A DNA stretch of 64,000 bases, from IMG/VR virus record IMGVR_UViG_3300013936_000014. The stretch is one strand, 5' to 3'. The number at the start of each line of letters is the position of its first letter. Position 1 is the first letter of the stretch. The notes under the pieces were generated by a model. That model did not search any database. It saw only the letters and a program-made list of their open reading frames with translations, and had not been told where the DNA came from. This DNA is from a virus. Lineage: Duplodnaviria > Caudoviricetes. Made by a program: the position numbers and the translations under genes. Below, piece after piece: positions 6,510 through 64,000 of this stretch.

Positions 6510-7742
6510 TCACCTCAAGTCAACCATCGTCACCGTGGGCTCGGCTGGAAGAGTGGCCGTAATGTTCGTCGACCCCACGGTCGCAAGGGTGACCGCCGAG
6601 CCCCACGCAAGGGTGGCATTCTTATTCGTCGTCGCCGGAGAGCTGATGACAATACCCCCGTTAGAATCGGTCGCGACTACCGTTCCGCCGGAGCCCTTGA
6701 TATTGAACTGCGATCTCAGCGCCCCATTCTCATAGAGTTTCAAATAAGCCTCTCCATTGTTGGTGGCCTTATTGGCTGCCGTGTCTTTTGCGCCGACATA
6801 AAGATAAGAACTCCAATGGGTATCTGTATTCGTATCCGTCCAGGGGACGCTCACCGTCATGGAGCCATCACTCGCGACGCTGACTCCATATGTCTTACCA
6901 TTTGTCGTGCCGCCTTTCACAAGTCCTTTTGCGGAATTGGTCGCCGTTCCCGGCAATTGATTGGTCGTCGCCACCGCTTGCCCATTCTTCAATACGGTGC
7001 CGTCATCCTTCACCCGTAGAAAATTCGATGCGTTGGCGGAAAGGGACCACTGCAAAGTGCCGGCCGGCGTTGTGGTCGACCCCACCCCATCATAGGCGTC
7101 CGTAACGCCGTTCATCGCCCCCAGGGTGAAGTCGAAGGCGAAATACGAATACGTCTTTATGTACAGAGTGGCGGTGCTGTTGGAGCTTGCGGAGCCAGAA
7201 GTGTACACGACAAGGTCGCACAGGCTCAATGACGCATTCCCGAGAATGGTGCCGGTGGCGGCAACGCCATCTCTGTTCGATATCATCATCGAAAGATACC
7301 CTTTGTTGCCGTTGTTCCATCCTCCTATTCTTCCATCCACGGTCAAAGAGCAGGAATTGCCGGCATTGTCTATCGGAAAGGAAGCCAGCTTGTAATAAGT
7401 GTAGGTGCCCGCGGTATTTCCGCTGTTCCCGCTCTTGTAATGCCTGCTGTTGTTCGCTTTTTTATTTAAAGCCGCTTGGGTGGCATTCGATATCGGCTTA
7501 TTCAAGTCGCTCGTGTTATCCACGTTGCCCAAGCCGACGTCGTTCTTCGTGTAAGAGAATTTATCCACCGTAAGAAACGGCAGATTCCCGACCGTCGTGG
7601 TCCCGTCGCCGACCTTCGCTTTATGAAGATCGCTGTAGTAAATGTATTCGCCTTTCAGCGGGACGAAAGCGGTCGCTTTGCCCCAATTGGCGCTTGTGTC
7701 GGCCTTTTGCTGAATGCGCGTTTTCAATTTCTTTTCTGCCAT
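6510..7742 (-). CDS. Tail fibre protein with Mtd_N/hyaluronidase-type N-terminal domain
   Basis: KTRIQQKADTSANW...PLKGE...KVGDG N-terminus; DVGLGNVDNTSD fibre repeat. Confidence 0.8.
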   Translation of the reverse strand: MAEKKLKTRIQQKADTSANWGKATAFVPLKGEYIYYSDLHKAKVGDGTTTVGNLPFLTVDKFSYTKNDVGLGNVDNTSDLNKPISNATQAALNKKANNSRHYKSGNSGNTAGTYTYYKLASFPIDNAGNSCSLTVDGRIGGWNNGNKGYLSMMISNRDGVAATGTILGNASLSLCDLVVYTSGSASSNSTATLYIKTYSYFAFDFTLGAMNGVTDAYDGVGSTTTPAGTLQWSLSANASNFLRVKDDGTVLKNGQAVATTNQLPGTATNSAKGLVKGGTTNGKTYGVSVASDGSMTVSVPWTDTNTDTHWSSYLYVGAKDTAANKATNNGEAYLKLYENGALRSQFNIKGSGGTVVATDSNGGIVISSPATTNKNATLAWGSAVTLATVGSTNITATLPAEPTVTMVDLR

Positions 7743-7949
7743 GATTGTCTCCTCCATTTATCGTTTCCAAAACTTGCAGAGATTGCCCTTCCCCATCATT
7801 CCAGAGGAAGGAGATATTCGCAATCCATCGTATTCTTGAATATGAACGACCCAAAAAGACATTGGATCGCAAATATCGCGGAACGGCCCGAAGGCGCGGG
7901 GTCTCCGCGCCTTGCGTTCCTTTTCATCCGCCCGAATAAAATCGGGCTT

Positions 7950-11076: not shown

Positions 11077-12144
11077 TCAAGCAACCGTGAAATGCCATTT
11101 GTTGGCTTTGTCGCAGGCTGCTGCATTGTCCTTATAATAGACATTATAGGATTTGGCCGTATAGCCGTTGGCGCCTTCAACATCCACAGTGATGTGCTTG
11201 AATGCGCTGAAAGCTTCGGCATTCAAACCGTTCACGTCTTTGATCGACGTGATCGTCCTTGGCGCCGGAACGGCGATGATGACTCTCATATCGCCGACGG
11301 ATTCAGCCGCATCTCCGGTATTGCCGGCGGAAATCGATCCGCCTTTTTTGCCGGACAATCCGCGAATGACGGCGCTCGTTGGGGTGCCTTCCTTCGATTT
11401 GACACCGCCCCAGAAGCTGTTCCGGTAACCAGTGATGGCAGATGAGGTGGAGCTCTTCGTGCCCGCTTTGATTGCCAGATCAGGCTTCTCAGTGCCTAAA
11501 TTGTTCTTAGGGCTTACGCCTGCGGTGTGGGTTGCCACAACGCTCACTTTATAATTGGTGTCATCAGCGACGGTGAATTGATAATTGCCGTCTTCCACGG
11601 CGAAATTGCCGCTGTCGGCGGTAGCGGTGTGCTTATCGGTGTCAGAAACCGCAAAAGTGGCGGTAACCCCCGTAGCAGGGCCATATTGATAACTGCCGCT
11701 GCCAAAACCGACCTGATAGCTGGGGGTGATGACCGTGCCGACCTCTTTTGCCCCAGCCTCATTCAATCTGATACTGACCCAAGGTTGGTCGACTTTAGGA
11801 TCTTTCGCCGAAGCGAACAGCCCGGATAAGAATTCCTTCAATGTCTTGTCTTTGGCGGCTATCGTTCCGCTTCCGGAAGCCGGCACGGTGAAAGTGCCAA
11901 TATTGACGGTCGCGGTGAAATCGCTTGTCATTTTGACGTTTTCGTCGGTGAGCTCTATCTCGTCTTTGACCGCGTAAGGAAGCTCTTCCCAAGTCTTAAC
12001 GCCATCACCGATCTTGAATTTGTTCGTATCGGTCTCAACGCCAATCTCACCCGCCAAGAGAATGACGCTCTTATTGGCCAGCCAGTTGGCCGCGGTGTCA
12101 TGACGAAGCTGAATTTTCATTTTCAAAATACTGTTTTCAGCCAT
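11077..12144 (-). CDS. Structural protein with Mtd_N-type N-terminal domain
   Basis: KIQLRHDTAANW...GEIGVETDTNKFKIGDGVKTWEELPY. Confidence 0.8.
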   Translation of the reverse strand: MAENSILKMKIQLRHDTAANWLANKSVILLAGEIGVETDTNKFKIGDGVKTWEELPYAVKDEIELTDENVKMTSDFTATVNIGTFTVPASGSGTIAAKDKTLKEFLSGLFASAKDPKVDQPWVSIRLNEAGAKEVGTVITPSYQVGFGSGSYQYGPATGVTATFAVSDTDKHTATADSGNFAVEDGNYQFTVADDTNYKVSVVATHTAGVSPKNNLGTEKPDLAIKAGTKSSTSSAITGYRNSFWGGVKSKEGTPTSAVIRGLSGKKGGSISAGNTGDAAESVGDMRVIIAVPAPRTITSIKDVNGLNAEAFSAFKHITVDVEGANGYTAKSYNVYYKDNAAACDKANKWHFTVA

Positions 12145-12191
12145 AACTTCTAATTTCCTCCTCCTGAAAATGTGCCTTTTGGACAACACGG

Positions 12192-12797
12192 TCACAAACC
12201 GTTGCTGTCTCCCCCGAAAAGAATTACGGAACTCTCGTCGGATTCCCCGTTGAGAACATTCACTATGTCTTGCTTCGCGGTGGGCGAATCGGTGAGCTTC
12301 GCCGCTTTGACATATGCCAGCCCGTTTTCTTCGACCTTGACATAATTCCTTTCACCGTCTTCGGAGGTCTCGACCTTTGAGGATCTTATGCCTCCTATTG
12401 CATCTTCCGTGGCGATTTTCGCATCGAGGCTGGTGGCCCCAGCGGCATGCCATTCATTCTCGCTCCAGAAGTATAGCAAATAATTTTTCCCGTCTTCCGA
12501 AAGCACCGCATAAAGGGCGTTTTCGCTCGCCTCGTCTTCTTTTGGCAAAGAGCTCACGACCTCAAGCCTGAGGGACGGGATGTCCCCGGCGCCGAATATC
12601 GATTGCCCGCCTATCGTCTTGACGTCCAACGGCGTCTGTCCTTCCAACGGCTCTCCTTTCCGATAAAGATAAAGCTTTCCGTCTACGGCGACGATGTCCG
12701 TGGGGGCCTGCTCCGTGGCGATTATGCCTGCGCTCGAAAGCCTGATTCTCTTTTTTATTACCAAATTGATTTCCGAGTTTTCCTTGTCTAATGACAT
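12192..12797 (-). CDS. Putative fibre/structural protein
   Basis: KTIGGQSIFGAGDI and VVSSLP...ENALY...W fibre-type motifs; position in the fibre cluster. Confidence 0.6.
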   Translation of the reverse strand: MSLDKENSEINLVIKKRIRLSSAGIIATEQAPTDIVAVDGKLYLYRKGEPLEGQTPLDVKTIGGQSIFGAGDIPSLRLEVVSSLPKEDEASENALYAVLSEDGKNYLLYFWSENEWHAAGATSLDAKIATEDAIGGIRSSKVETSEDGERNYVKVEENGLAYVKAAKLTDSPTAKQDIVNVLNGESDESSVILFGGDSNGL

Positions 12798-50263: not shown

Positions 50264-51084
50264 TCTTTTTCCAAAGTTTGCATTTTAGCCAATCTTCTTT
50301 TCTCTCTCTTGCAAAAATTCTTGTTTTCCTGCCTTTGTTTCTTATAGCAATCCTCGCACACCTCTCTCTTTGTGTATCCGGTTATCTCGAACCTCTTGCC
50401 GCAGATGGGGCAGACCCCAAATGGTTTCTGCACGAATTCCTCGGCTCTCAGTATCGCCTCCAGCGGATCTTTGAATCTCAGGGCCTCTTTCCCGGATTTC
50501 GCGTAGAACACCGTCTCCGCATAGACCTTCCCCCTGACGCACGTCGAGGTCAGAGGCCTTCCGGCCTTGATGTTCGCCTTGATCATGTTTTCCGCGACTT
50601 TGCAATAGACCTTCCCTCCGTTCGCGTGCCAGAAGCAATAGGACCTGATGTCGTTGGTTATCTCGAATTTTCCTTCGGCGTCTCTGTAGAATTTCTCTAT
50701 GCACAGCAGATTGAACAGGTATTTCCTGAAGACATAGGTGGAGTTCAGCGAATTGATCGCGTCTATCTCCTCCCGGTAAAGGACGTGCTCTTTTCCATAG
50801 TCCAAAGTGAGGGTGTGGGAATATTTTTTCTCCATGGCCCTTCCGTATATCAATCTGAATCTTCCCTCCAGCTCATCCTCCGCTATCGCATCCCTCTTCC
50901 GCCCTTCGGTCGGGATGGACCTCCATTTCTCGAATATCCTGCTTTTGTCCCATCCCAGAGAAGACAGATAGGCGCACAGCGTCAGCTGCTGCAGATATTC
51001 CTTTTTCCTCTCCCATTTGTCCCCGTCTGAGTATTTTCCCTCGCAAAGGACTTTGACGGCGTTCGCTTTCCAGTCGAATATCAT
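50260..51084 (-). CDS. Hypothetical protein with C-terminal Zn ribbon
   Basis: CPICGK...CEDC; SD GAGGAGG before MIFDWK. Confidence 0.6.
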   Translation of the reverse strand: MIFDWKANAVKVLCEGKYSDGDKWERKKEYLQQLTLCAYLSSLGWDKSRIFEKWRSIPTEGRKRDAIAEDELEGRFRLIYGRAMEKKYSHTLTLDYGKEHVLYREEIDAINSLNSTYVFRKYLFNLLCIEKFYRDAEGKFEITNDIRSYCFWHANGGKVYCKVAENMIKANIKAGRPLTSTCVRGKVYAETVFYAKSGKEALRFKDPLEAILRAEEFVQKPFGVCPICGKRFEITGYTKREVCEDCYKKQRQENKNFCKREKRRLAKMQTLEKE

Positions 51085-51457
51085 ATGCACGCACCTCCTC
51101 GTGCGCATCATATCATTTTCTCTTCGAAAGGTCAATGGCCAAATGCGTTTTCCCTTTTTTAAATGCCTCTCGGCTTCTCCCATCCCAAAGAAATACATAA
51201 AGAAAGTCCTTCCCCCCTCTACTCCCCTCTTTCTTTCCCTCGCTCGCTTCGCTCGCTCGGGATATCCACTTTAGCTCACTTCGTTCGCTATAAGTGTAGG
51301 CTATGCATATATTTTTTGTGTTTTCTTTTTCTAGTATACGCAAAACACTTAGAGCAGGCGGGCGCGCGCGGAATGTTATGTAGCAACCAATGCATATGCA
51401 AATCGCGCGCGACGCGCTCCAAATCAAGGAAAAAGCGGCGGGAAACGGAGAAAAGCC

Positions 51458-51486
51458 TTGACTCGCCGCCCCCGGCGTGATAGAAT
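51458..51486 (+). promoter_or_regulatory. sigmaA-type promoter of the RNAP operon
   Basis: TTGACT-17-TAGAAT with extended TG and an upstream A tract. Confidence 0.7.
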
Positions 51487-51541
51487 CGAGGAAAGAGAGG
51501 AAGGGAACCCCATCGCCCGACCCTGCGAAGGAGGACTGCCT

Positions 51542-51976
51542 ATGGCAAAAAGAATTACTGATTACGACATCCCGGATGGGTACGACGGCCCGGAGATATT
51601 CGTCGTGACGAAGAACCCGGACAACCATAAGCCCCACTATGAGAGGGCGACCCCAAGGAACGGGAGGCACGAGACCCTCTACCTCGTGGAGAGGATACTC
51701 AGGAAATGCAAATACTTCGACGAGCCGTCCGGCGGCTCCATCTATTACTGGGCGGGCTCCGAGGAATTCAGGGAGATCCTCGAATGGGTGCTGAGCAACC
51801 CGTCGATGTGGGAATTCCCGGGTTCAGAGGAAGACGTCTCCTCTTTGAAGACGGTGCCATTCGAAGAAGACCTCTTCCCCTATTTGGCCGACTGCGATTT
51901 CCTTGAGGAATCGGTCGACGAAGGGGAGCCAGAGAAAAAAAAGAAAACGCGCGCCATGCATCCGGAGGGGGATTGA
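51542..51976 (+). CDS. Hypothetical protein
   Basis: SD AAGGAGG before MAKRIT. Confidence 0.6.
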   Translation: MAKRITDYDIPDGYDGPEIFVVTKNPDNHKPHYERATPRNGRHETLYLVERILRKCKYFDEPSGGSIYYWAGSEEFREILEWVLSNPSMWEFPGSEEDVSSLKTVPFEEDLFPYLADCDFLEESVDEGEPEKKKKTRAMHPEGD

Positions 51977-52031
51977 TTTGTCCGCGGCATTGCCGCAAAA
52001 GGCGCAGAAGCGCAGAAAGGAGGGCTGAACC

Positions 52032-55000
52032 GTGCCAGTTGTGCAGAATCTATATCAGATCTTCAAAATTCCGGCGTCCGTCTTGGTCGCCAAAAACTGC
52101 ATTTGGGACAATTATTCAAGAGCCCAAGGCTACAAAGACGGGAACATCGTCTCCATCGGCGACAACATCGTGTTCCAGCAGCTCCGCTATATCCACGGCG
52201 ACATGCGCGAGCATCATGAGATCTTCAATTACATCCAGCGTCTTCGCAATTCCATGAGGCGCTACAAAAAAGAAGGGAAGAAAGAAGAGGCGAAGATACT
52301 GGGATACAGGATAAACCAGGTCATGTTCGTGGAAGACATCGTGAACGTCTTCGTGGACGGCAAGAAATCCGATTTCCACAAATTCCGCACCAAGGGGTTC
52401 GAATTCAATGGGCACAGATACGTCTATCTCTGCTCGGGCGCCGGCCAGATCCGCCGCAACACCGCCACCTTCGTGCGCGAGGAATACCACGACAGGCTCG
52501 TCAAAACCATCAACTGCGGGCTCGACGAGAAGACCTCCGAGTTCGTCCTGGCGAAATACAGCGCCTACTTCGCGCTCGCTTTCTCCTCGATACTCTGGGT
52601 CCGCACCCCCCGCTGCTGCGTCATCAGGGATTTCAAAAGAAACCTTCCCAAACAACCCGTCGACTTCATCTGCAAGGATGCCGCCGGCAAATCGATCATC
52701 GAGAAGCGCGAGATGGACGTCGAGCTCAACTGCTTCGACGGGCAGGGGCTCATAGACCCCGAGTTCGCGCAGCTCTGGTCCGAGGACATGGACCTCAACT
52801 ACACGCCATGCTCGTTTGTCGCCCGCTCCTGCTTCGTCAAGGGGAACCTCGCGACGTTCGACTTCAAAGCCTATGCCCGCGAGCACGGGATCAAAACCGT
52901 CAGGGACCGCTGGGGCAAGGAATACGACGTCGAGGACATCGACGTCATCCTCTCGGAGTCCCAGTTCAAGACCGCCAAGTATTACTCCTCTTGGGAGGAA
53001 TACCTCGGCTACGCGAACGCGGGCAGCATCCACTGGGGCGTCGCGAGATACAACAGGGAGACGGACGACGAATGGGTGCTGGCAAACTACCAGTACATCC
53101 AGTCGCTCACCCTCTCGAAAGACGACATCAAGGGGCTCATCGCCCCCACGATCGACTGGATAAGGAAGATCTGCTCCGGGGATGAGCTCTACACCCTGCT
53201 TTACTGCTTCGGCCCGAAATCCGGCTCAAGCGACTATCGGCAGATGCTTGGGACGGCGCAGACGACCATGATGAAGGCCATCGTGAAAAACGTCGACTTC
53301 CTCAAGGACTCATACGTTCAAGGCAAAATATACAAGAACATCGCCGAGACGATAAACAAGGCGAAGATCGGCAAGATATGGGTGCATGGCAATTACCAAT
53401 TCATGGTGTCCGATCCGCTCGCCCAATGCCAATGGGCGCTCGGGCTCGACCCGGTGGGCGGGCTCAAGGCGAACGAGATATACTCAAAGTTCTGGAGCGA
53501 CCGATTGCGGGAAGACCCCGCACGGGATACGGGTTGCCTCGTTGACGCGTGCAGATCGCCGTTGATCGATCAGCATGAGCACAACCCGATGAGCGTCATC
53601 ATGAACAACGAAGAAGCTGACAAATGGTACAGGTTCCTGCCGAGCGGAATAATCTACAACTGCTACGACACGAGCTGCGCCAGGCACAGCGATTCGGACT
53701 TAACATCTAGGTCTTCCATATGGCGACATATGGTCAAGTCTTGGTGAACACGCAAAGTGGTGTGGGAGGGGAATCCCTCCTGCTAACATCAAAAACCGTA
53801 AAATAGGTATTGAAATGGAACGCAACAAAACAATCGGCAATAAAAAGAAACAAAAGAGTCGATGGCTATTTGATAAGAAAAATACCTAAAGGCAATGATG
53901 TGCCAAGCCTCCGCAAGGAGGAAGGTGCAACGACTAGGGAAACCGCCGGCAAAGCCGGAGAAGGGAGTACCGTAGGGGCGTCTGAGATGACGTCTCGAAG
54001 TGCCAAGCAACTCGGAAACGAGTTGAAGAAATAGTCTAAGCCCCTAATAAATATCGGGAAACCGAGGGTATCAACTGTCGATGGTGACATAGTGATGACT
54101 ACGGACAACCCGTACTTCATCAAAGGCTCCCACAAGGACCACAACATAATACTTTACGAAAAAGGCCTCGCGACCCCCGCGAAGATGACCACGTCCAACA
54201 TAACGGCGGCTGTTCTCAGGGGGTTCGGGACAGCTGTCGGGAGTTTCTCAAATTGCGCCACGATCATGTATGCGATGGCTGCGATTTTCGACAAGCCGGG
54301 CCAAGAGGACCAGGAAAACACAATTTACAACCGAATAAAGCTTCTAAGAGAGATAGTCGGCCAAGAGATCGACAAAATAAAAGGCTGCAAACCTCCTCAT
54401 CTCCCTTCTGACTGGAAGAAATACGAGCGCACGCTCCCAGACGATGAAGAGGAAGAAAGGCAGCGCAAATACAAACACAATGCTTTGGTGATATCGAAGA
54501 AACCCTATTTCTTCCGTTATCTCTACCCAGAGCTAAATCGTCGCTACAAGCAATTCGAGGCGTCCTACAACCAAGTCAGCCGCGACATGTTCGGGATCAA
54601 ATTCAAGAAGCTTCTCGCCAAGCGGGACAAAACGCCAGAGGAGGTCGCGCTGGTCCGCAAATACCAGAAATACAACCCCCTCATCACCTCAAACTGCACG
54701 ATGAACGTCCTCTGCAGGATGGTGGAGTCGGTCGACTTCGACATCCGCTTCGCGAAGGACGACTCGGACACGAGGAGGCAAGCCGTCTCCATGCTTCCAA
54801 CATACGAGGGGTATTACGGCGCCTCCTTCTCGCAGGAGAAGTTCAATTACGTCAAGTCGCTCTACCGTCGCTATTGCTCCCGCCGCCAAATAAAACAATT
54901 GGAATCCATCATGGATAACGTGCCGACCAATCCTTATTCCGACGATTTCGCGGAGATCAGGCACAACATGCTTGACGCATTCCTTGACGAATTGCGCAAA

Positions 55001-55405
55001 GATCTTGAGTCAAGCAATATCAACGATGAGGAATTCCTCTTCTATTGCTCCCGCCTTGCCCCAACCTATAACAATTTCAGCTGGGGATTCGCATGGGACG
55101 TCCTGGGGGATTCGATCTTGGAGGCAATCCCGCAAGGCAGAACCCTGTACCCGGTCCGCGACCCCGACGGCGTCGAGTATCTTGGGGGCCGCTACGTCCT
55201 GGAGGACATCTCCGACAAAGGGGAGCTCGCCATACAGTCCCTCCTCGATTCCGTCTTCGGGGACCCGGAGGGCACGCTCACCGAGGAGGAGATAGCCCAG
55301 ATGGCGCGAGAGGAAAATCTTGACATCAAGGGGAAAAAATCGGATAATGACGCAGAAAGGGGAACGGAGAAGAAGGAAGGGAAAGACGATGACGAAGATG
55401 AGTGA
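52032..55405 (+). CDS. YonO-like single-subunit (RdRP-like, double-psi-barrel) RNA polymerase; exons 52032-53700 and 54078-55405, 998 aa spliced
   Basis: SGAGQIR, KYSAYFAL, FDGQG, FVKG, NYQYIQ, CRSP and EIDK motifs. Splicing restores SDSDFDGD. Confidence 0.9.
53701..54077 (+). ncRNA. ORF-less group I intron in the RNA polymerase gene (377 nt)
   Basis: P1 GACU/GGUC with a U-G pair at the splice site, P7 elements AACGACUA and AAAUAGUC, omega-G at 54077, frame restored. Confidence 0.92.
55320..55348 (+). promoter_or_regulatory. Putative sigmaA promoter inside the RNAP 3' end
   Basis: TTGACA-17-GATAAT. Confidence 0.5.
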
Positions 55406-55817
55406 GACCATAAGCAGAACAACGAAAGAGGAGATCGAGAAGCTTCGCATCGAGCAAAATCCCGTTCGCGACGAAGTCTGCTCTGTTCCTGGAATCGGCG
55501 AGACGTCTTTGGGAAGGCCCCGCAATAAACTCGGCATCAAGGAAGACCGCAGGCTTTCTGCCCAATCCACCATCAGGCGAAATCTTGAGAGGCATGGGGT
55601 CAAGAACGCCTCCGCCCTTCCCGAAGTCCGCGCCAAGACAGAGAAGACCGCCATGGAGCGCTACGGCGTCCGAGCGTCTTCCCAATCCCCCGAGACCAAG
55701 GAAAGGCAAAAACGGACGAACCCGAGAAAACACGGCGCCGGATCCCGCAAACACGTCTGGGAGCCAGAAGCCCCGGATGCCGACGAAAAAGGAAAGGAGG
55801 GCAGACAGGATGCATAG
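55398..55817 (+). pseudogene. Truncated remnant of the Hef-like endonuclease N-terminus
   Basis: Degenerate HTH plus LERHGV, MERYGV and RKHGA repeats; no nuclease domain. Confidence 0.55.
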
Positions 55818-56577
55818 ACCGATAGAATTCACGGAGCTCAAGCCGCGCATCTGGCGGCAGCTCCACTCGATATACGAGGCGCACAAAGGGGCGGATCCCG
55901 CCCCCGAGTCCCTCGCCGCCCTGCTCGTCCCGCCCCTTGAGAACGCCGGCTTCTCCGCGGGCGACTCGGCCAGGATAGCCGCCTCGTTCGTGCGCAGCTT
56001 CGACGCGATCGGGGACGCCAAGGCCCTCGGGGACGCCCCGGACGCCCCGGATTACGAGTCGGCGGATTCCCCGTCCGGCCGCCTTCGCCTCACGCTGTCG
56101 CTCCTGGACGTCAACTGCCTTCGCGCGATGCTGGCGGATGAGCCGTCCTGCGATGCCCGGCGCCTCCTGGTCGCCTTCGCGGCCTGGGACCGCGCCAACC
56201 CCCACCCCTCCGGGTGGATCCGCTACGACCGCGCGGCCATAATGTGCCTGGCCGGGCTCACGCATCTCCGCCCGTCGGAGCAGGAGGCGCTCACCCAGCT
56301 CCTCCACCGCTCCCATGGGCTCGACATGCAGGTCGTCGGGTCAAACAGCCCCATCCCCTGCTTCCGCCTCTCGTGGCTGGAGGAGGAGCCGCCGATCGGA
56401 TCCCCGGCCAACCCGGCCCAGGACATGGGCCCCCTCGCCCCCGCCTCAGTCGCATACGCGACGCGCGAGGTCCTCGGGCTCCCGCCCGCCGGCGAGGCAA
56501 AGGCGGACCGAGGAGACAAAGGCGGACGGAAGGCCGGCAACGGCGGAAGGAAAACCAAACAAGGAGGAAACATCTGA
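55810..56577 (+). CDS. Hypothetical protein
   Basis: Coupled ORF, GC-rich. Confidence 0.55.
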   Translation: MHRPIEFTELKPRIWRQLHSIYEAHKGADPAPESLAALLVPPLENAGFSAGDSARIAASFVRSFDAIGDAKALGDAPDAPDYESADSPSGRLRLTLSLLDVNCLRAMLADEPSCDARRLLVAFAAWDRANPHPSGWIRYDRAAIMCLAGLTHLRPSEQEALTQLLHRSHGLDMQVVGSNSPIPCFRLSWLEEEPPIGSPANPAQDMGPLAPASVAYATREVLGLPPAGEAKADRGDKGGRKAGNGGRKTKQGGNI

Positions 56578-57326
56578 TGGAAACACGCAGGAAAGACGGC
56601 GGCGACGCCGAACGCAAATGGAAGGAGGCTTCCCAGGCGGCGGAAGCGGCGGAGGCCGCCCGCGAGGCGCGCGAGGGGCTTGAGAGGGAGACGGAAAGCC
56701 GCCCCTCCCTCGCCTCCCGCGCCAAGGCGGCGCTCGCGAGGAAGGCCGACCTCTGGCTCGTCGTCCCGCTCGACGGCGGGGCGGAAAGCGACGTCCTCTA
56801 CGCCGCCCCCACCAAGAAGGAGGCCTTCCAGGCGGTCAACCTCCTCCTCTTCCGCCATCTCTTCCCCCATTATTCCATGTGGCTCCCGCTGCACGGATAC
56901 GAGGGGGACCCAAGGCAATACGGGGCGGACAGCGAGGCGTTCGCGGAATACGCCTCCGCCAACCATGAGGAGGCGGACGCCTTCGTCTCATCCCTCGCCA
57001 TCCAGAGGGTGCGCTACGACATGGCCGGCGTCGCCTCCATGTTCCGCATGCTCTGCGGCATAGCCCCGATCGGCCTCAGGGGCGAGTCGGGCGAGGAGGT
57101 CTCCTATTGGCTCCTCCAGGCCGAGGAGGCCCTCAGGGAGATGGAAGAGGGGCAAAAGGAAAGCGAAAAAGAGAAAAGCCTTGACAAAGAGGCAGAGGCC
57201 GCCCATAATGAGGGGGAGAGGGCAACGGGCGGCGGACCCCAAAGGAAGAAGGGACGCCCCCGCGGAAACAAGGGTGCCCGGAAAAGCGCCCCCCGCCCCA
57301 AGAAAGGAGACCCAAATGGAAATTAA
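56577..57326 (+). CDS. Hypothetical protein
   Basis: SD AAGGAGG before METRRK. Confidence 0.6.
   Translation: METRRKDGGDAERKWKEASQAAEAAEAAREAREGLERETESRPSLASRAKAALARKADLWLVVPLDGGAESDVLYAAPTKKEAFQAVNLLLFRHLFPHYSMWLPLHGYEGDPRQYGADSEAFAEYASANHEEADAFVSSLAIQRVRYDMAGVASMFRMLCGIAPIGLRGESGEEVSYWLLQAEEALREMEEGQKESEKEKSLDKEAEAAHNEGERATGGGPQRKKGRPRGNKGARKSAPRPKKGDPNGN
57181..57209 (+). promoter_or_regulatory. Putative sigmaA promoter
   Basis: AAAAGCC-TTGACA-17-CATAAT; same upstream context as the 51458 promoter. Confidence 0.5.
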
Positions 57327-57663
57327 GGACATCGAGGACGCCCCCGCCTATCAGGTCATCATGCAGGACGAGTACGACAACCTCTACCTCCTCGGGCTCT
57401 ACGCGAGCCTGGAGGACGCCAGGAAGGACGTCAACGAATGGCTCGCCGCGTACGACGAGGACGGCGTCAGATACCTGGAGGAGGGGGAGCTTTCCGAATA
57501 CGCCTCCACCTTCGGCGGCTGCTTCGACCGCGAGGTCGAATGGAAGGGCGAGGACGGCGGCCCGGGATGCGTGGCGGTCAGGGGATTCGCCCTCAGCGCC
57601 AAGTCGCTCAAAGAAGACGCGGAGAGGATCCTCCGCGCCGCCGACAAGGAGGAAACCAAATGA
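57316..57663 (+). CDS. Hypothetical acidic protein
   Basis: SD GAAAGGAG before MEIKDI. Confidence 0.6.
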   Translation: MEIKDIEDAPAYQVIMQDEYDNLYLLGLYASLEDARKDVNEWLAAYDEDGVRYLEEGELSEYASTFGGCFDREVEWKGEDGGPGCVAVRGFALSAKSLKEDAERILRAADKEETK

Positions 57664-58076
57664 GATTCATCGAAAGGCTGAAGGGGCTCTTCAAGAAGAG
57701 AGAGACCGAGAGATCCACATTCGCCATCACGTTCAGGCACTCCGCCAAGAGCATCGAGTTCGAGGGGACCTGGGAGGAGGTCAAGGGCCTCTTCGGGAAG
57801 TTCGCCGGAGGCAAGGGGCTGAAGATGGGCAACTTCTTCGTCCCGTGGGACGAGGTCGCCTTCATCTATCAGGAAGACAAAGAGGAGAAGAAGGACGAGG
57901 CGAAGAAGGGGCCGAAGCCGGGGGACGAGATCCCCGCGACGCCCGAGGCGAAGGACCTCGGGGCGGAGACCATGGAAGTCCTCGGGGAGAAGGAAAGCCC
58001 GAAGGACGCGAGGATCGACGAGGTCAAGGCGGCGGTCGAGAAGGAGACCGAGGTCAAGGCCGAGGAAATCAAATAA
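57660..58076 (+). CDS. Hypothetical protein
   Basis: SD AAGGAGG; ATGA coupling with the upstream gene. Confidence 0.6.
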   Translation: MRFIERLKGLFKKRETERSTFAITFRHSAKSIEFEGTWEEVKGLFGKFAGGKGLKMGNFFVPWDEVAFIYQEDKEEKKDEAKKGPKPGDEIPATPEAKDLGAETMEVLGEKESPKDARIDEVKAAVEKETEVKAEEIK

Positions 58077-58099
58077 AGGAGGGAAACCTCCTTTTTTTT
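58077..58099 (+). terminator. Intrinsic terminator
   Basis: AGGAGG-GAAA-CCTCCT-TTTTTTT. Confidence 0.85.
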
Positions 58100-58353
58100 C
58101 ATGCCCCCGGAAAACGCCCCGGGGGCTTTTCGGGCGGGCCGAACCGAAATCAGGGGCCGCGGGCCGCCGGAGGCCGCGCGCGAGGCGGGGGGCGGATGGG
58201 GCAGGGGCGACGGCAACGGCTGCGGCGACGACTCGGGGGAGCAGCGGCGGCTGCGGCTGCGGCGGCAACTCGGGGGGCGGGGGAGACCAGTGAAAGGGAA
58301 ATAAGAAAGAAATTATTTCTTTTAAAATGTAAATTAGGGTTTTCCTGGTTTAC

Positions 58354-58420
58354 CGTCGACTAGGCGACGTTAAACAGCCGTCAGGCCTAGTGCGTCCTTC
58401 CTTTTAAGGGAAGGGGTCGG
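58354..58420 (+). ncRNA. Pistol self-cleaving ribozyme
   Basis: P1 CGUCG/CGACG; loop ACUAGG pairs with CCUAGU (pseudoknot); UUAAA linker; P2 CCG/CGG; conserved GCG; P3 UCCUUCCUU/AGGGAAGGG; G|U site at 58416/58417. Confidence 0.88.
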
Positions 58421-58449
58421 ATCGTATATCCGAGAAAGGAGATACTCTC

Positions 58450-58665
58450 ATGAAGTATCGTTTCATTTCGTTCCGCACTTACGGAACAGGCGTCGTTCAA
58501 TACGACACAAAGGCATTCATGTCTGAAGACATGGGTGCCTTGATCGAGGCCGTCTGCCAGGAGGCCCGAATCCTCTTGGCGAACGGCCACGACCGCATCA
58601 CGGTCCACGAGACCTGCGATGCGGAGGACGCGAAAAGATGGAATATTTCCATCTGCCGCGTCTAA
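58450..58665 (+). CDS. 71-aa hypothetical protein between two ribozymes
   Basis: SD GAAAGGAG; the stop codon overlaps twister-sister P1. Confidence 0.7.
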   Translation: MKYRFISFRTYGTGVVQYDTKAFMSEDMGALIEAVCQEARILLANGHDRITVHETCDAEDAKRWNISICRV

Positions 58666-58742
58666 GCCGCAAGGCCCCTCTCTCAAAAGAGAGAGGATCG
58701 GTGCAAGCCCGATGCCCCGAAAGGGGTGGCGCTCATGGCCTA
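58663..58742 (+). ncRNA. Twister-sister self-cleaving ribozyme (four-way junction type)
   Basis: GCC-GCAAG-GCC, P3 CCUCUCUC/GAGAGAGG, P4 AUCGG-UGCAAGC-CCGAU, P5 GCCCC-GAAA-GGGGU, then GGC-GCUC|AU-GGC. Predicted cut at 58734/58735. Confidence 0.9.
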
Positions 58743-59611
58743 TGACCATCGAGGTTGCTCTCGTTAAAAAGCTATGGCGCTTTCAGGCGCCAGCGTCGTG
58801 CGAATCTTGACGCACGATGGCTGGGCAAGACGCTTGAAGGCAAATGCCAGCGGTGGCAAACTCACCATCGCCCAGACGGGGGTCATCCCCGAACGGTGCA
58901 AAGCAAATAACCTCGCTTTGCGTAGTAAAAAAGAGGTAGACGCCCCTGCTTCCGCGGATCATCCGCAGGCGGTTGGGAAACGCACAAAGGAAAGCCAGGA
59001 CTCAGAGCCTGGCGGCCCGATAAGGGAAAAGATGGAGCGACTGCAATCCAGGCAGGAAATGGCTTGGACTAACGCGCAACAGCGGCGCGGCGGGAAAACG
59101 ATACCACTGATTTGATGTGGCTGGGTGAGACGCCTCTCTTCTATGTCCTTCGACCGACGATCGAGGGAATGCGGATGGAGGGATGGCGGAAGTACCTCTG
59201 CCTCCTCATGCACGTTTCATGAGGGGGTTGGCACAGAGGGAAAACAGTCGCACCTCAAGGTGGGAGCTCGGTTGCGAAGCAACCAGGTGCACGGCTCGAA
59301 TGGGGGAGATTCCCCCGGGCCCGGGAACAAAAATGACATGATTCTGCGGTGTCTTGGGTAGGTTTGCGTCGAAAACCTATCTCCGCGACCCTCAATCGTG
59401 TCTCTAGTCAACTGGAGCATCCTCCCTCACGATGGAGGGTAACGTCTGCTTCAACGTCGTCGTGAAGAGGCAGTGAGGCGGCATCACGCCAAGACCAGGA
59501 AAATGATGGCAGATATCGGACGCGAGGGCGCTAAGGCCACGACAACGTTCGCGTTCCGGACAAAACATAGTGGCACCGCCAGGGGCTGTCTTCGGACAGC
59601 TCCTTTTTCTT
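58735..59611 (+). ncRNA. Candidate large structured ncRNA (877 nt) of unassigned class
   Basis: No SD-led ORF. Near-continuous hairpins and pseudoknots, bounded by two ribozyme cut sites and a terminator. Confidence 0.7.
59581..59611 (+). terminator. Intrinsic terminator whose U tract doubles as twister P1
   Basis: AGGGGCTGTC-TTCG-GACAGCTCCT-TTTTCTT. Confidence 0.8.
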
Positions 59612-59661
59612 AATGCGGCAAGCTGGTCCCAAGCCCAGCGGAAGACGCAGAGGGAGAAAGG
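59604..59661 (+). ncRNA. Twister self-cleaving ribozyme (type P1)
   Basis: P1 UUUUUCU/AGAAAGG; U|AA at 59611/59612; P2 UGCG/CGCA; P4 GCUGG-UCCCAAGC-CCAGC; T1 CCC/GGG; T2 GC/GC; conserved GAGGG. Confidence 0.92.
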
Positions 59662-59669
59662 AGACTGAT

Positions 59670-60125
59670 ATGTCTCAAAACAGAAAAGCGGAAGCTCGCC
59701 TCATGTGCGACTATCCGATCTTCGGGACCGTCTCAGACGTGTCCCGAATGAGCACAGGCGTCGTCTACGTCCGCCCGTGCTACTTCAAAGCAGGCGTGGA
59801 CAAGGAGGTCGCGATCTTCCTTCGCGACGCGAAGAAGGAGCGCTGGGCGACCAAAGAGAATCTGAAGGTCGGCACCAAGCTGACCTTCATGATCAGCATC
59901 GACCCATTCAAGGGGCCGATGGCGACGAGCCTCAGAACGGTGAATGCCGCGCCGAAGGACGCGTATTCCGAGCCTTACCGCCCGGACTGCATCCCGGATG
60001 CGAAAGGCTTCCGCCGCATCATCGAGGCGGCGAGAAGACGGGACATGAGGGCTTGCCGCGAAAAGCTGGCGGCCTCATCCGACCCCGTCGACAGGCTCTT
60101 GGCGGCCATCCTGCCACGAGACTGA
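59670..60125 (+). CDS. Hypothetical protein (possible OB-fold)
   Basis: SD GAAAGGAG, overlapping twister P1', before MSQNRK. Confidence 0.65.
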   Translation: MSQNRKAEARLMCDYPIFGTVSDVSRMSTGVVYVRPCYFKAGVDKEVAIFLRDAKKERWATKENLKVGTKLTFMISIDPFKGPMATSLRTVNAAPKDAYSEPYRPDCIPDAKGFRRIIEAARRRDMRACREKLAASSDPVDRLLAAILPRD

Positions 60126-60222
60126 GACGAAAAACAACCTGGCGCCCGCCTCCGAGGCGCATTCTAAATATCGGGGCTTTGGCGGTTCGAAACCGCAACG
60201 ACGGTTTGATTGAAAGGAGAAC

Positions 60223-60876
60223 ATGAGTATGTCACAGAACCAAATCAAAAAAGTCAAGATCACCGATCTGGAAATCGGAACGGGAGTCGTCTACAAGGAC
60301 AATGAGGGCAAATTCTTCCGTCTTTCTTGGGTGGAGGACAGCACCTCTCCCAGAGAGAGGGGGATAAGCGGAAGGCAATTGACCTTCTACACCTGGATCG
60401 AAGGGTATCGAAGCCCCGACGCCTGCAACAAGACAATGAAGGAATTCTATGGTTCCTTCGGCGCCAAGAACACCGAAGAGCTCCTGGAGAACATGGACAA
60501 AAAAGGCTATTTCGTGAAGCCCGTCTATGCGATGATCCATTCGGGGATCTACTACTCCTTGAAAGACTTCCGCGATCCATATGACAGCGGATTGGCCGGA
60601 TTCATCTTCGTGCCAAAGAAATGGATTGTGCACGAGTCCGAAGCCTCTTTCGAAGGGGTCGCCGAAATGGAGGTGAAAGAGTACAGCGCCTGGGCCAATG
60701 GCGAGGTGTGGGCCGTTGAACGCCTGGACAAAGAAGGAAATGTCATCGATGGCTCCCACATTGTCTTCGGGGAGGGAGAGCTCGAAGACATAGACGACGC
60801 CCTCCGAGAAGCCATGATAGCCCCTCAATGGGAATACGAGGTGGCGAAGGTGAAGACCTTCACCGTCTTGGAATAG
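60223..60876 (+). CDS. Conserved-looking hypothetical phage protein
   Basis: SD GAAAGGAG; HSG...DSG..GFI...Y..W.NGEV pattern. Confidence 0.65.
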   Translation: MSMSQNQIKKVKITDLEIGTGVVYKDNEGKFFRLSWVEDSTSPRERGISGRQLTFYTWIEGYRSPDACNKTMKEFYGSFGAKNTEELLENMDKKGYFVKPVYAMIHSGIYYSLKDFRDPYDSGLAGFIFVPKKWIVHESEASFEGVAEMEVKEYSAWANGEVWAVERLDKEGNVIDGSHIVFGEGELEDIDDALREAMIAPQWEYEVAKVKTFTVLE

Positions 60877-60948
60877 CGTCCGAAAAAACAATTCCCTTTG
60901 CGGCGGGGTTATGCCGCAACGCCATTGAGGCAATAGGAGGAAACAAAA

Positions 60949-61584
60949 ATGCCAAATTATGTGAAAAATGCAATAACCTTCAAAACAACCGAAGGTTTGG
61001 AGAGATTCAAGAAGGCTTATATGCCGGACGGAGAATTCTCCTTCAATTCCATAGACGAGATGCCCGCGTCTCTGGACATCGAAAGGGGCGGCAAAACGCT
61101 GCTTGCTTTCAAGATATACGTCACCAAGAACCATATAGAAGGCGTCGAATATCCTTTGACTCTGGATTTGACCCCCGAAAAGCTCGAAGAGGTGTATTCT
61201 CACCTTTCCGAGAAAGAAAAGAAAGATTACCTGAGACTCGGAGAGCAGATAGTCTCCAATCTCAGAGAATACGGCTGTGCCGACTGGTATGAGTGGAGGA
61301 TTTCCCATTGGGGCACGAAATGGGACGCGAAAGAGGTTCAGATCGACGCGAAAACCCACTCGATCGTATTCCAGACGGCGTGGTCGGCTCCGATGCCGAT
61401 CATAGAGAAGATCGCAAGGGAAATGAAATCCCAATTCGCGTTCTCTTATGCAGATGAGGATATCGGCTATAATTGCGGAGTGTTCCTCTTTGGGGGAAAA
61501 TACGGGTCCCAAGGATTCGGAGCGGAGATGAGCGGGACGCCGGAAGGGAAGGAATTGGCCAAAAGACTATGGGACGCGGAATAG
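60949..61584 (+). CDS. DUF1281/YubB ferredoxin-like family protein
   Basis: MPNYVKN...DWYEWRISHWGTKW...FQTAWSAP. Confidence 0.75.
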   Translation: MPNYVKNAITFKTTEGLERFKKAYMPDGEFSFNSIDEMPASLDIERGGKTLLAFKIYVTKNHIEGVEYPLTLDLTPEKLEEVYSHLSEKEKKDYLRLGEQIVSNLREYGCADWYEWRISHWGTKWDAKEVQIDAKTHSIVFQTAWSAPMPIIEKIAREMKSQFAFSYADEDIGYNCGVFLFGGKYGSQGFGAEMSGTPEGKELAKRLWDAE

Positions 61585-61610
61585 CCGCGGCGAAAAAAAA
61601 GGAGGCAACC

Positions 61611-61721
61611 ATGAAAAACGAACAGAAAGTCTACGCAGAGATCTATTCTTACGGGGTTTCGGACCACATCGTATGGACAAAGTCCATAACATCTTCAATA
61701 AGAAGTACGACAGTCTTTTAA
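61611..61721 (+). pseudogene. Chimeric gene stub
   Basis: 61623-61672 is identical to 62447-62496 (5' part of gene 62438) and is fused to the 3' end of gene 63146. Confidence 0.75.
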
Positions 61722-61798
61722 ATTAAGGTCTGTTGTCAATTCCCGTCCCGAGCATGACGCTAAAAGGCTCTGGTTGGACTTCCATTAAAAGTCAACGA
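61672..61798 (+). repeat. 127-bp direct repeat, copy 1
   Basis: Matches 63391-63517 with 3 mismatches. Confidence 0.9.
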
Positions 61799-61823
61799 TG
61801 TGTTCATTAGGAGGAAAACAAAA

Positions 61824-62420
61824 ATGGCTAACATTTGTTCAAACCAATACCGCTTCGTCTTCTCGACGGAAGAAGCGGCGAAGAAATTTGTCGAATTCGT
61901 AGAAAAGGAGACCGAAGAAAACTCTTCGGTTTATTTGCTCGGCATCAAAGCCGGCATCGCCGATGCGAATAACAGAGACGTTAGAGAATGGGAGGATACC
62001 GTGTCCTTCCGTTCTCCAGAAAACAAAAAAGAGGTGATGATTTACTCCGAGTCGAAATGGACGCCCTGTCCGAACGCTTGGAACGACATTGCGAAGACCT
62101 TCGACGAGAGGGTCGCAACATATTACGAGGCCGAAGAACCAGGATGCGGAATTTGGGCTTCTAATGACCCGGATTTCATTGGGAAATTTGTCGTCGATCC
62201 TTGTGTCGGGGAGGGATTCCCCGAAATTGATAAACTCAATTATGGGGTTTACAACTACGAAGAAGTCGTGAAAATTCTTGATAGACTTCTAACAGGGAAA
62301 GGAGCCGGAATCCTTGATGATCTTGAGACGTTGCTCTCGAAATTGAAGGCATCCAAGTACAAGGATGTTTTGTACGTTAATGAGATCATTGAGCAGCCAC
62401 TCTCTAACTGGAAACAGTAA
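61824..62420 (+). CDS. Hypothetical protein, YubB/DUF1281-related
   Basis: MANICSN...SKWTP...YEAEEPGCG. Confidence 0.6.
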   Translation: MANICSNQYRFVFSTEEAAKKFVEFVEKETEENSSVYLLGIKAGIADANNRDVREWEDTVSFRSPENKKEVMIYSESKWTPCPNAWNDIAKTFDERVATYYEAEEPGCGIWASNDPDFIGKFVVDPCVGEGFPEIDKLNYGVYNYEEVVKILDRLLTGKGAGILDDLETLLSKLKASKYKDVLYVNEIIEQPLSNWKQ

Positions 62421-62437
62421 GAAAAGGGGAATAGGAT

Positions 62438-62722
62438 ATGAAAAAGCAGAAAGTCTACGCAGAGATCTATTCTTACGGGGTTTCGGACCACATCGTGTGG
62501 TTCGACTCTCTGGAAGAGGCGGAAAAAGCGCTAGAAGAGCATATCGCCGCCATGCGGAAGGTCGGCGATTACGAGATCTTCAGAGATTCCGTTGCCGACG
62601 GGATCAAGATGACGGAGGGCGACATGTCCATCACCATCTACATCCCATCGGGAAACGACGACGAGTGCGACCTTAACGTCGCCTTTGTCATCATCAGACC
62701 AATGAAAGGAGAAGGGAAATGA
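62438..62722 (+). CDS. Hypothetical protein
   Basis: ORF in the early-type gene array. Confidence 0.6.
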   Translation: MKKQKVYAEIYSYGVSDHIVWFDSLEEAEKALEEHIAAMRKVGDYEIFRDSVADGIKMTEGDMSITIYIPSGNDDECDLNVAFVIIRPMKGEGK

Positions 62723-63054
62723 AAACGTATAATCTCAAAGTCGAAAAATGGAACATAGAAGAGGAGACGGGTTACAAACCGCTGTTCACCTTCTATGAGG
62801 ATTTCTCCATCGCGGAGCCCTTCGGGGCTTCCGCCGTCGAGGAGACTTTCGATAGGATCTTCGAAGAGTGGAAAGGGGATCATAAAGCCCTGACCGAACT
62901 CGTGATGGCCCTCAATTGGAAAGTCTGGGTTCTTTTCGAAAGGGGGTCCAAACTGGCGGAAGTCTATTCCAGACTTTGGAATAAGGCGGACAGCTATGCC
63001 GTCTCTCACCTCAAAGGCGAGGAACTGTCGTACTTCTACAGGACGACAGACTGA
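62719..63054 (+). CDS. Conserved-looking hypothetical phage protein
   Basis: TFYEDFSIAE.FG...LTELVMALNWK...YFYRTTD. Confidence 0.65.
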   Translation: MKTYNLKVEKWNIEEETGYKPLFTFYEDFSIAEPFGASAVEETFDRIFEEWKGDHKALTELVMALNWKVWVLFERGSKLAEVYSRLWNKADSYAVSHLKGEELSYFYRTTD

Positions 63055-63145
63055 AAACGATCCGGGGAAGGAAAACCCCTCAAACCGCTTTGGGGATTCA
63101 GCTCAAATCCCAGCGACATTGAAGCAATCATAGGAGGAAAACGAA

Positions 63146-63445
63146 ATGAAAGACTTCAAGAAATTAGCCAAGCTCGTCAAGGAGCTCGACGCTCAGGACA
63201 TCTGGGCCTACATGCTTGAGATCGCTACCGTCATCGACGGCAGAGGCGACCTCTCCGAAGGGCAGAAAGAGGATGCTTACTCTTTAGCGTCAACGGAATT
63301 CGAGAATTCCGAGGACAGCTCCATCGGCGCCAACGTCTTCGCCGAGGCGGCCATCGAAACCGTCTTGGATGAGGATTACGATGAGGATGATATGGACAAA
63401 GTCCATGACATCTTCAATGAGAAGTACGACAGTCTTTTAAATTAA
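63146..63445 (+). CDS. Small highly acidic protein
   Basis: SD AGGAGG; D/E-rich. Confidence 0.65.
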   Translation: MKDFKKLAKLVKELDAQDIWAYMLEIATVIDGRGDLSEGQKEDAYSLASTEFENSEDSSIGANVFAEAAIETVLDEDYDEDDMDKVHDIFNEKYDSLLN

Positions 63446-63517
63446 GGTCTGTTGTCAATTCCCGTCCCGAGTATGACGCTAAAAGGCTCTGGTTGGACTT
63501 CCATTAAAAGTCAACGA
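63391..63517 (+). repeat. 127-bp direct repeat, copy 2
   Basis: Matches 61672-61798 with 3 mismatches. Confidence 0.9.
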
Positions 63518-63540
63518 CGCGTGTTTTGATAGGAGGAAAA

Positions 63541-64000
63541 ATGATCATGAAAAACACAATTCAACAAAATTTGGCCGCCGCGGCGGCAGCCAAGAAGGCA
63601 GAAGAAGCGGCAAGGAAAGCAAGGGCCGCAGAGGAGGCCGAACGAGCAAAAATCGAGGCTTTTGCCAAAGAACATGCCGATGTCGGCATTTCCACGATAA
63701 AAGGCATCATCGATGCCGCGAAGAAAGGAGAGCTCTTCTTCATCGCCATGGGAAAAGACGGCTTGGTCGCCGATTATGCGACCTCCGCGAAAGACGCCCA
63801 AAAACACGTTGAATGGATTTACAAATCCGCCCGTGAAAACAAGGAGGAATTGCTTCTCGATTCCTCAGCCATCATGGCCGGCATGATGGAAATGCAAAGA
63901 AAGTTCCAGATCGCGCATGACGCGATCGAAGCGGGGCTAATCCCAGAAGACGTCATCATCGACGAAGACAACGTCGAACACTGGGTGGCGGGCAACAGAG
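63541..64000 (+). CDS. Hypothetical protein, 3' end runs off window
   Basis: SD AGGAGG, open frame MIMKNTIQQNL... to the window end. Confidence 0.6.
   Translation, partial: MIMKNTIQQNLAAAAAAKKAEEAARKARAAEEAERAKIEAFAKEHADVGISTIKGIIDAAKKGELFFIAMGKDGLVADYATSAKDAQKHVEWIYKSARENKEELLLDSSAIMAGMMEMQRKFQIAHDAIEAGLIPEDVIIDEDNVEHWVAGNR

Follow-up and report, generated by a model that had tools for sequence, protein, structure and literature searches.

What do self-cleaving ribozymes release when several of them stand in series in a phage genome? For the twister-sister, pistol and twister ribozymes of bacteria and phages, a biological role is still described as largely elusive (PMC6765202). We address the question at one locus of a 64,000-nucleotide (nt) stretch of phage DNA (IMG/VR record IMGVR_UViG_3300013936_000014, Caudoviricetes; hereafter the window), in which three predicted ribozymes lie within 1.3 kilobases (kb) of each other and bracket first a small gene for a protein of 71 amino acids (aa) and then an 877-nt stretch poor in open reading frames (ORFs). 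The second bracketed unit belongs to a family of large, conserved and heavily base-paired RNAs. The reading that we favor, with a probability of roughly 0.7, is that a transcript beginning at the head of an operon is cut by the ribozymes and that this cutting releases the large RNA as a free, linear and stable molecule acting in trans.

Three ribozyme motifs on one strand

Rfam covariance models were run with cmscan over the whole window, and positions 57800-60200 and 51000-64000 were rescanned permissively. The whole-window scan returned exactly two families above their thresholds, pistol and twister-sister, both on the + strand (Table 1) and about 23-33 bits over those thresholds. A twister-P1 on the same strand matches the full length of its model with E-values of 1.1e-7 in 2.4 kb and 6e-7 in 13 kb. 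A first-pass annotation, made by reading the DNA without database searches, had named these three classes on one strand and suggested a covariance-model search as the check; pistol and twister-sister came through it above their gathering scores, and twister-P1 stayed below its own, though with an E-value of about 1e-7. The Rfam scan gave no further ribozyme match in the 64-kb window, and a cluster of three in 1.3 kb is therefore far beyond chance.

The pistol match covers model positions 1-68 of 68 with no non-canonical pairs flagged; model positions 63-64 align to G58416 and U58417, placing the predicted cut at the G-U step of the stretch that links P3 to the 3' strand of P2, and P1 and P3 covary among four related lineages (L016, L036, L058 and L066; L numbers designate related loci throughout). 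The twister-sister, matched over model positions 1-81 of 81, begins at the stop codon of the 71-aa gene. Its predicted cut, C58734/A58735, lies at the C-A step of CGCUC^AU (GGCGCUC^AUGG, 58728-58738; compare the segment C58-G59-C60-U61-C62-A63-U64 with its C62-A63 step, PMC5660989). Eight more twister-sister copies in sister loci score 55-66 bits each.

The twister scores low because 3 nt stand in for 21 positions of the model. Its core blocks are all present (U^AA at the cut, the GGUCCCAAGCCC loop of P4, and GAGGG), as are stems P1, P2 and P4, in a three-stem layout that we take to match minimal twisters such as the one from rice. The predicted cut is U59611/A59612, and the 3' strand of P1 adjoins the ribosome-binding site of the next gene. 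The motif recurs in L016, L017, L036, L051 and L078, the available copies comprising two sequence variants, and in L016, L051 and L078 its P2 shows the compensatory change GCG/CGC to GCA/UGC. The three cut sites read from the model alignments are the same as those of the first-pass annotation (58416/7, 58734/5 and 59611/2); the 71-aa ORF and the ORF-poor 877-nt stretch lie where it had placed them, and the predicted cuts are consistent with its 318-nt mini-messenger RNA (mini-mRNA; 58417-58734).

Motifs of this kind could be decayed relics that no longer cleave, in which case the large RNA would be a long untranslated spacer or would have its 5' end made by host RNases. The sub-threshold twister is compatible with decay, and two relatives described below (L022 and L080) carry a truncated and mutated remnant of the twister-sister. 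Decay would not, however, be expected to leave the catalytic cores intact and conserved at an overall identity of 52-88% with stems that change by compensation, nor to leave pistol and twister-sister so far above their thresholds. We consider this explanation very unlikely.

Conservation and fold of the large RNA

Homologues of the ORF-poor stretch were gathered from contigs carrying relatives of the 71-aa protein and of the 151-aa protein encoded downstream, and from one pattern scan of metagenome contigs. Fourteen distinct lineages (L016, L018, L024, L028, L032, L036, L051, L058, L066, L078, L079, L081, L082 and L083) have a gene-free gap after the twister-sister that is homologous to 58735-59455, with 52-88% identity. 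For this core, RNAalifold predicts 162 pairs in the 14-sequence alignment (A2), 61 of them with compensatory changes. Shuffled alignments gave 30.5 ± 3.3 covarying pairs, with none of 500 shuffles reaching 61, and sliding the pairing partners gave 17-26. Standard pairs filled 94.1% of the paired cells versus 87.3% in shuffles, and the covariation score was 0.305 versus 0.05-0.09 with partners slid.

Since these comparisons tested the structure on its own training sequences, we performed a split-half cross-validation. Folds derived from seven lineages were 86-88% paired in the other seven, versus 35-46% when partners were slid, and the number of covarying pairs was 40-45 versus 6-18. Paired sites hold 338 G.U cells and 49 A.C cells, and this 7:1 excess identifies the + strand as the RNA strand. 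The large RNA is under purifying selection comparable to that on the neighboring genes.

Could the stretch instead encode a protein, degraded or recoded, or serve as a DNA-level element such as an origin or packaging site? It contains + strand ORFs of 113 and 78 aa, and longer - strand ORFs occur in some relatives. However, no frame is conserved and the indels are not multiples of three. In the closest relative, L058 (94% identity over the whole region, 98% over aligned columns), the 113-aa ORF (58774-59115) has a frameshift and four stops, and in all other lineages it carries 2-6 stops; Pfam was blank on six ORFs of the stretch. The compensatory changes and the G.U excess likewise indicate an RNA read from the + strand. 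Covariation, frame, G.U and cross-validation results effectively refute both the coding and the DNA-element explanations, to which we give almost no credence.

The stretch thus combines compensatory pairs in excess of every control with the lack of a conserved reading frame, and the earlier proposal that the 877 nt from 58735 to 59611 form a structured RNA is backed by covariation across the 14 lineages. No Rfam model matched at E<=10, either across 58746-59606 or in the longest homologue (L051:900-3700). On this comparative evidence, the ORF-poor stretch is a conserved, heavily base-paired RNA family outside Rfam. A covariance model of positions 59264-59441 (R1) found no copy in three more distant relatives (phage records G001-G003) and no second copy in the window; blastn of the GenBank phage collection with the 1.4-kb region gave no match, and neither did an IMG/VR search with the two flanking small proteins. 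The pattern CGGCGCGRCGGGAARAMRATA gave 31 matches in metagenome contigs, five of them true; it gave chance matches only in GTDB genomes, and one 22-nt match in IMG/VR (L037) that the covariance model did not confirm.

Two further features of the RNA sequence were noted. An internal duplication, suggested by TGGCTGGGYRAGACGC repeated at a spacing of 300 nt, was dropped because the repeat is not conserved in relatives. Near the 5' end (58750-58772), a short hairpin with UUAAAAA after it occurs one to three times, with extra copies in L058, L018, L032, L036 and L066; this unit resembles the P1-plus-linker half of the pistol (CGUUAAACAGC versus CGUUAAAAAGC).

Ends of the RNA and its behavior as a cassette

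In every lineage the large RNA is immediately preceded by a twister-sister whose stems show compensatory changes, and the 5'-OH end that the cut of this ribozyme would produce begins AUGGC. Downstream of the core, most lineages add 3' domains X (~200 nt, missing in the window) and Y (~125-150 nt), for which 73 pairs, 19 of them covarying, are predicted from eight lineages. The RNA then ends, in all lineages, with a hairpin that is conserved in position and has a covarying stem, followed by UUCUU. Measured from the twister-sister cut to the U tract, the RNA is 877 nt long in the window, 746 nt in the shortest lineage (L078) and 1,221 nt in the longest (L024), with a median of ~1,090-1,100 nt.

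What comes after the U tract varies. In the window, L058, L016 and L078 (4 of 14 lineages), a twister comes directly after it; in L036 and L051 the twister lies further downstream, behind an extra protein gene. A structured leader that is not a ribozyme follows the U tract in L018, L024, L028, L032, L066, L079, L081, L082 and L083, and also in L036 and L051. Where it replaces the twister, this leader takes the form CUCUUCUUAAG-hairpin-CUUAAGAAGGGAAACCUUC (L018:3890-4000, L081:3880-4000, L036:3460-3560 and L083:4360-4450), which matches no Rfam model. The 5' arm of the leader shares sequence with the 3' arm of the terminator hairpin, and the two helices are therefore mutually exclusive. The leader is a candidate for a new processing element or switch.

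The variable 3' side bears on whether the released RNA is circular. RtcB of the host could join 5'-OH and 2',3'-cyclic phosphate ends to give 877-nt and perhaps 318-nt circles, in the manner of Tornado, an engineered system that makes circular RNA from a ribozyme-flanked RNA and RtcB. In the window the large RNA is indeed flanked, as in Tornado, by ribozymes that would leave such ends, and the predicted cut sites would give each fragment RtcB-compatible chemistry on both sides. Circular products of serial ribozymes were already considered in 2011, when Perreault et al. looked for circular or spliced products of tandem hammerheads and found none (PMC3088659).

Several observations speak against circles here. 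Unlike in Tornado, the natural 3' ribozyme is not conserved: outside the four lineages with a twister directly after the RNA, the same hairpin and U tract are followed by a leader that is not a ribozyme. Nor is there a counterpart of the designed end-pairing stem, since the consensus fold contains no end-to-end helix and ties the 5' end only to a point close to where the core ends, by a 3-bp helix without compensatory changes. RtcB was not found in the three related phage records or among window ORFs of at least 312 aa, the latter agreeing with the first-pass remark that no RtcB gene is visible in the window. We therefore regard RtcB-sealed circles as quite improbable. The same annotation had assigned RtcB-compatible ends to both sides of the RNA, and as a general mechanism this fails: only the 5' twister-sister is conserved, and the 3' side is a hairpin with a U tract throughout. 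With a 3' twister in few lineages only, the RNA is not defined by a 3' end that carries a 2',3'-cyclic phosphate. Ribozymes on both sides do not occur in all members, and circle formation is not a conserved feature, though it is possible for the lineages that carry the twister.

The RNA also comes and goes as a unit. L022 and L080 are nearly identical to L018 over the 71-aa gene and again over the downstream leader and gene. Between these regions, the twister-sister is reduced to a mutated 5' third, and a cassette with a 52-aa ORF replaces the remainder of the ribozyme and the whole RNA; the right-hand breakpoint is the terminator hairpin. The existence of such close relatives without the RNA indicates that it is a swappable, optional cassette. 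The gene after the RNA varies as well, encoding 151 aa in the window, 153 aa in L024, 320 aa in L051, 80 aa in L036 and 103 aa in L083.

These comparisons also weigh on a role in cis, in which the RNA would be a polymerase-modifying leader (put-like antitermination) or would control translation or stability of the downstream message. Its place in the transcription unit is what a leader would occupy: second in order, close behind a candidate promoter, with a long array of genes on the same strand beginning there. But the RNA is predicted to be severed at its 5' end in all lineages, a terminator-like hairpin closes it, and in the window the 3' end is predicted to be cut as well. The gene that it would regulate differs from lineage to lineage, sister phages with identical downstream genes manage without the RNA, and a length of 0.75-1.2 kb far exceeds that of known cis leaders. 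A role in cis is accordingly unlikely, and release of the RNA to act in trans fits these observations better.

Operon head and phage context

Table 1. Features of the ribozyme operon and the upstream polymerase gene, with positions in the window.
Feature	Position	Strand	Evidence
Two-barrel RNA polymerase, YonO/RdRP type	52032-55405		PF05183, phrog_8308
AAAATGTAAATT motif, candidate promoter of the transcription unit (inferred)	58324-58335	+	Conservation upstream of leaders
Pistol self-cleaving ribozyme	58354-58421	+	RF02679, 67.1 bits vs gathering score 34.5, E 4.8e-10
5' untranslated region of the mini-mRNA	58417-58449	+	Read from sequence
Conserved 71-aa protein gene, function not assigned	58450-58665	+	78 homologue clusters
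Twister-sister ribozyme	58662-58745	+	RF02681, 56.7 bits vs gathering score 34, E 4e-10
Conserved core (~720 nt) of the large structured non-coding RNA	58735-59455	+	14-sequence alignment A2
3' accessory domain Y	59456-59580	+	Alignments of 8 lineages
Terminator-like hairpin (AGGGGCUGUC-UUCG-GACAGCUCCU) and U tract	59581-59611	+	Terminator scan
Minimal twister-P1 ribozyme	59607-59658	+	RF03160, 43.3 bits, under gathering score 67.2
Next cistron, conserved 151-aa protein	59670-60125	+	GGAG ribosome-binding site 59660-59663

The ribozymes lie ~3 kb downstream of a polymerase gene and head a long array of small + strand genes without assigned function. The AAAATGTAAATT motif recurs in the window, L058, L059, L036, L066 and L083, where the pistol or the 71-aa gene's leader follows it at a distance of 20-90 nt, and it is a likely promoter. 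It sits in an AT-rich gap downstream of a G+C-rich, glycine-rich gene. A scan for the sigma-70 consensus called no promoter, this motif included.

The pistol is restricted to some lineages (the window, L058, L059, L016, L036 and L066). The untranslated region that would follow its cut consists of a 17-nt terminal hairpin, UCGGAU-CGUAU-AUCCGA (58417-58433), and then the ribosome-binding site GAAAGGAG (58434-58441). Where the pistol is missing, the leader of the 71-aa gene has small hairpins with GUAAYGUG loops (L083:2930-3000 and L018:2640-2720), and in L022 it contains a triplicated CGTACCCAGCATGG unit.

Nearly all of the 78 homologue clusters of the 71-aa protein are exactly 71 aa long. The protein has no Pfam or PHROG family; its AlphaFold2 model, a confident one (mean predicted local distance difference test score, pLDDT, 85) has the order beta-beta-alpha-beta-alpha-beta. 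An obligate pairing of this gene with the large RNA was considered and rejected: L032 and L079 have unrelated genes upstream of the RNA, and L022 and L080 carry the gene but lack the RNA. The 151-aa protein, represented by 60 homologue clusters at 60-99% identity, likewise has no Pfam or PHROG family.

The DNA of the window is that of a phage and encodes Mtd-type tail proteins, an anaerobic ribonucleotide reductase, collagen-repeat proteins and several DUF7487/HTH proteins; a match to the ATPase domain of the terminase large subunit is weak and below the Pfam cut-off. The nearest GenBank relatives of the polymerase, at 28-35% identity, are from SPbeta-like Bacillus phages, Enterocloster phages and Clostridium phage c-st, and relatives of the phage infect Firmicutes.

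Three side observations concern other parts of the window. A sub-threshold match to the group I intron model (RF00028, 53705-54059 on the + strand, 27.5 bits versus 50, E 0.0011, full model) fills the gap between polymerase ORFs 52032-53747 and 54092-55405. The two polymerase parts are contiguous in L002 and form a single 985-aa ORF in L083, so that the window's polymerase gene is probably split by a self-splicing intron. The N-terminal domain of the major tropism determinant (Mtd_N) occurs in two proteins on the - strand (6510-7757 and 11077-12195), which hints at a diversity-generating retroelement target in the phage. Finally, the + strand region at 55585-58304, between the polymerase gene and the ribozyme operon, has 60-70% G+C, overlapping long ORFs, GGC/GCG repeats and glycine-/alanine-rich products, and no family match.

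Proposed role and relation to known systems

The locus may work as follows. Standing first in an operon of accessory genes of a large uncultured phage, it would give rise to a primary transcript that is cut co-transcriptionally by its ribozymes. The pistol would remove a 5' leader, after which the mRNA for the 71-aa protein would start with a 5'-OH and a terminal hairpin before the ribosome-binding site. Cleavage by the twister-sister would sever this mRNA from the large RNA and create the 5'-OH end of the latter, whose 3' end would be set by the conserved hairpin and U tract. In the window, the minimal twister seated on the U tract would cut transcripts that read through, freeing the RNA and giving the next mRNA a 5' end of its own. 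The ribozyme motifs, the conservation and structure of the RNA, its linkage to the twister-sister and its behavior as a cassette are matters of observation; the cleavage itself, termination at the hairpin, linearity, action in trans and any role of the product are our reading of sequence patterns.

The RNA is very large, is under purifying selection, is dispensable between close relatives and lies among small genes of an early type, and together these properties favor a trans-acting accessory factor. Our best guess, held with low confidence, is a factor for host takeover or counter-defence or, alternatively, an assembly made of RNA only, as in GOLLD and ROOL. Several points count against the proposal as a whole or in part. 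The twister remains below its Rfam gathering threshold (43.3 versus 67.2 bits). For the single sequence, the folding z-score favors the + strand (-3.8) over the - strand (-2.8) by a modest margin only. The 71-aa gene usually precedes the large RNA but is not strictly linked to it, and its product has no significant fold match in the PDB (Foldseek, none better than E 0.75). Lastly, nothing in the sequence indicates a target of the large RNA, and its role is a guess.

A bolder view, possible but doubtful, is that this RNA founds a new class of giant, ribozyme-processed phage RNAs (up to 1.2 kb) that does a sophisticated job alone, as an RNA-only multimer, a new large ribozyme or a host-defence decoy, perhaps as an RtcB-sealed circle where the 3' twister is present. 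If this were true, twister-sister ribozymes would have their first defined biological purpose. Short of that, the locus ties the twister-sister, in 14 of 14 lineages, to a single predicted job, making the 5' end of a large non-coding RNA, and it offers a concrete system, tractable in vitro, for asking what these ribozymes are for. Ribozymes, terminator hairpin and non-ribozyme leaders appear at these junctions as interchangeable punctuation in phage accessory operons.

How does the array compare with ribozyme clusters already described? Serial arrangements recur among related phages. G002 has a pistol, a 99-aa ORF, a 65-aa ORF and then a twister; in G003, ORFs of 63 and 70 aa are bracketed by three serial pistols that score 62-70 bits each (L015:5846-6477, in a complete 109-kb IMG/VR phage record); and in L024 two protein genes have a second twister-sister between them. 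The genes bracketed in these three cases are mutually unrelated. The three pistols of the sister phage contradict the suggestion, made in the first-pass annotation, that unrelated folds serve to avoid DNA repeats. Perreault et al. (2011) described multiple hammerheads flanking single prophage genes and proposed that they process long phage transcripts (PMC3088659). Cutting of polycistronic phage RNA by ribozymes is also treated in PMC6765202. Clustering of ribozymes near other ribozymes and near phage genes led to the discovery of twister-sister, pistol and hatchet (Weinberg et al. 2015, as cited in PMC4604425 and PMC5737381).

Such clusters in phages and prophages share with ours several ribozymes within 1-2 kb on one strand that bracket single small genes, a set of bracketed genes that varies by phage, and a proposed role in cutting a polycistronic transcript into units. 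They differ in that one bracketed unit here is a structured RNA of 0.75-1.2 kb with a twister-sister always at its 5' end. The serial ribozymes are therefore a new instance of an already known arrangement, and the large RNA is a new family. To our knowledge, ribozyme-made ends on a giant non-coding RNA are uncatalogued, and the literature that we searched, a scope that left subscription journals outside, held no earlier report of a large non-coding RNA with a ribozyme-made end.

Among the closest known counterparts are GOLLD, of ~800 nt, and ROOL. Like them, the RNA described here is very large, multi-junction, phage-associated and non-coding, has no assigned function and is present in only some relatives. 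Outside ribosomal RNA (rRNA), structured RNAs of more than about 600 nt are very rare, and the present family adds one of 0.75-1.2 kb that is strongly supported by sequence comparison; each very large RNA class so far has proved biochemically remarkable or is still an open puzzle. ROOL, a large ornate RNA of bacteria and phages, has ~581 nt, and only rRNA, GOLLD and group II introns exceed it in length among bacterial RNAs (PMC5737381); GOLLD and ROOL RNAs have been seen as cages by cryo-electron microscopy (bioRxiv 10.1101/2024.12.08.627333). Unlike GOLLD and ROOL, the RNA of this locus lacks an Rfam match at the E-value limit given above, has its predicted ends set by a ribozyme and a terminator hairpin, and has no transfer RNA (tRNA) genes nearby, none having been found in the 64-kb window. 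A further parallel is the trimming of phage tRNAs by theta or minimal HDV-like ribozymes (Kienbeck et al. 2024, PMC10879173), which likewise define one end of a non-coding RNA. Here, in contrast, the ribozymes are of other classes, the RNA concerned is no tRNA and is 10 times larger, and it is the 5' end that would be trimmed.

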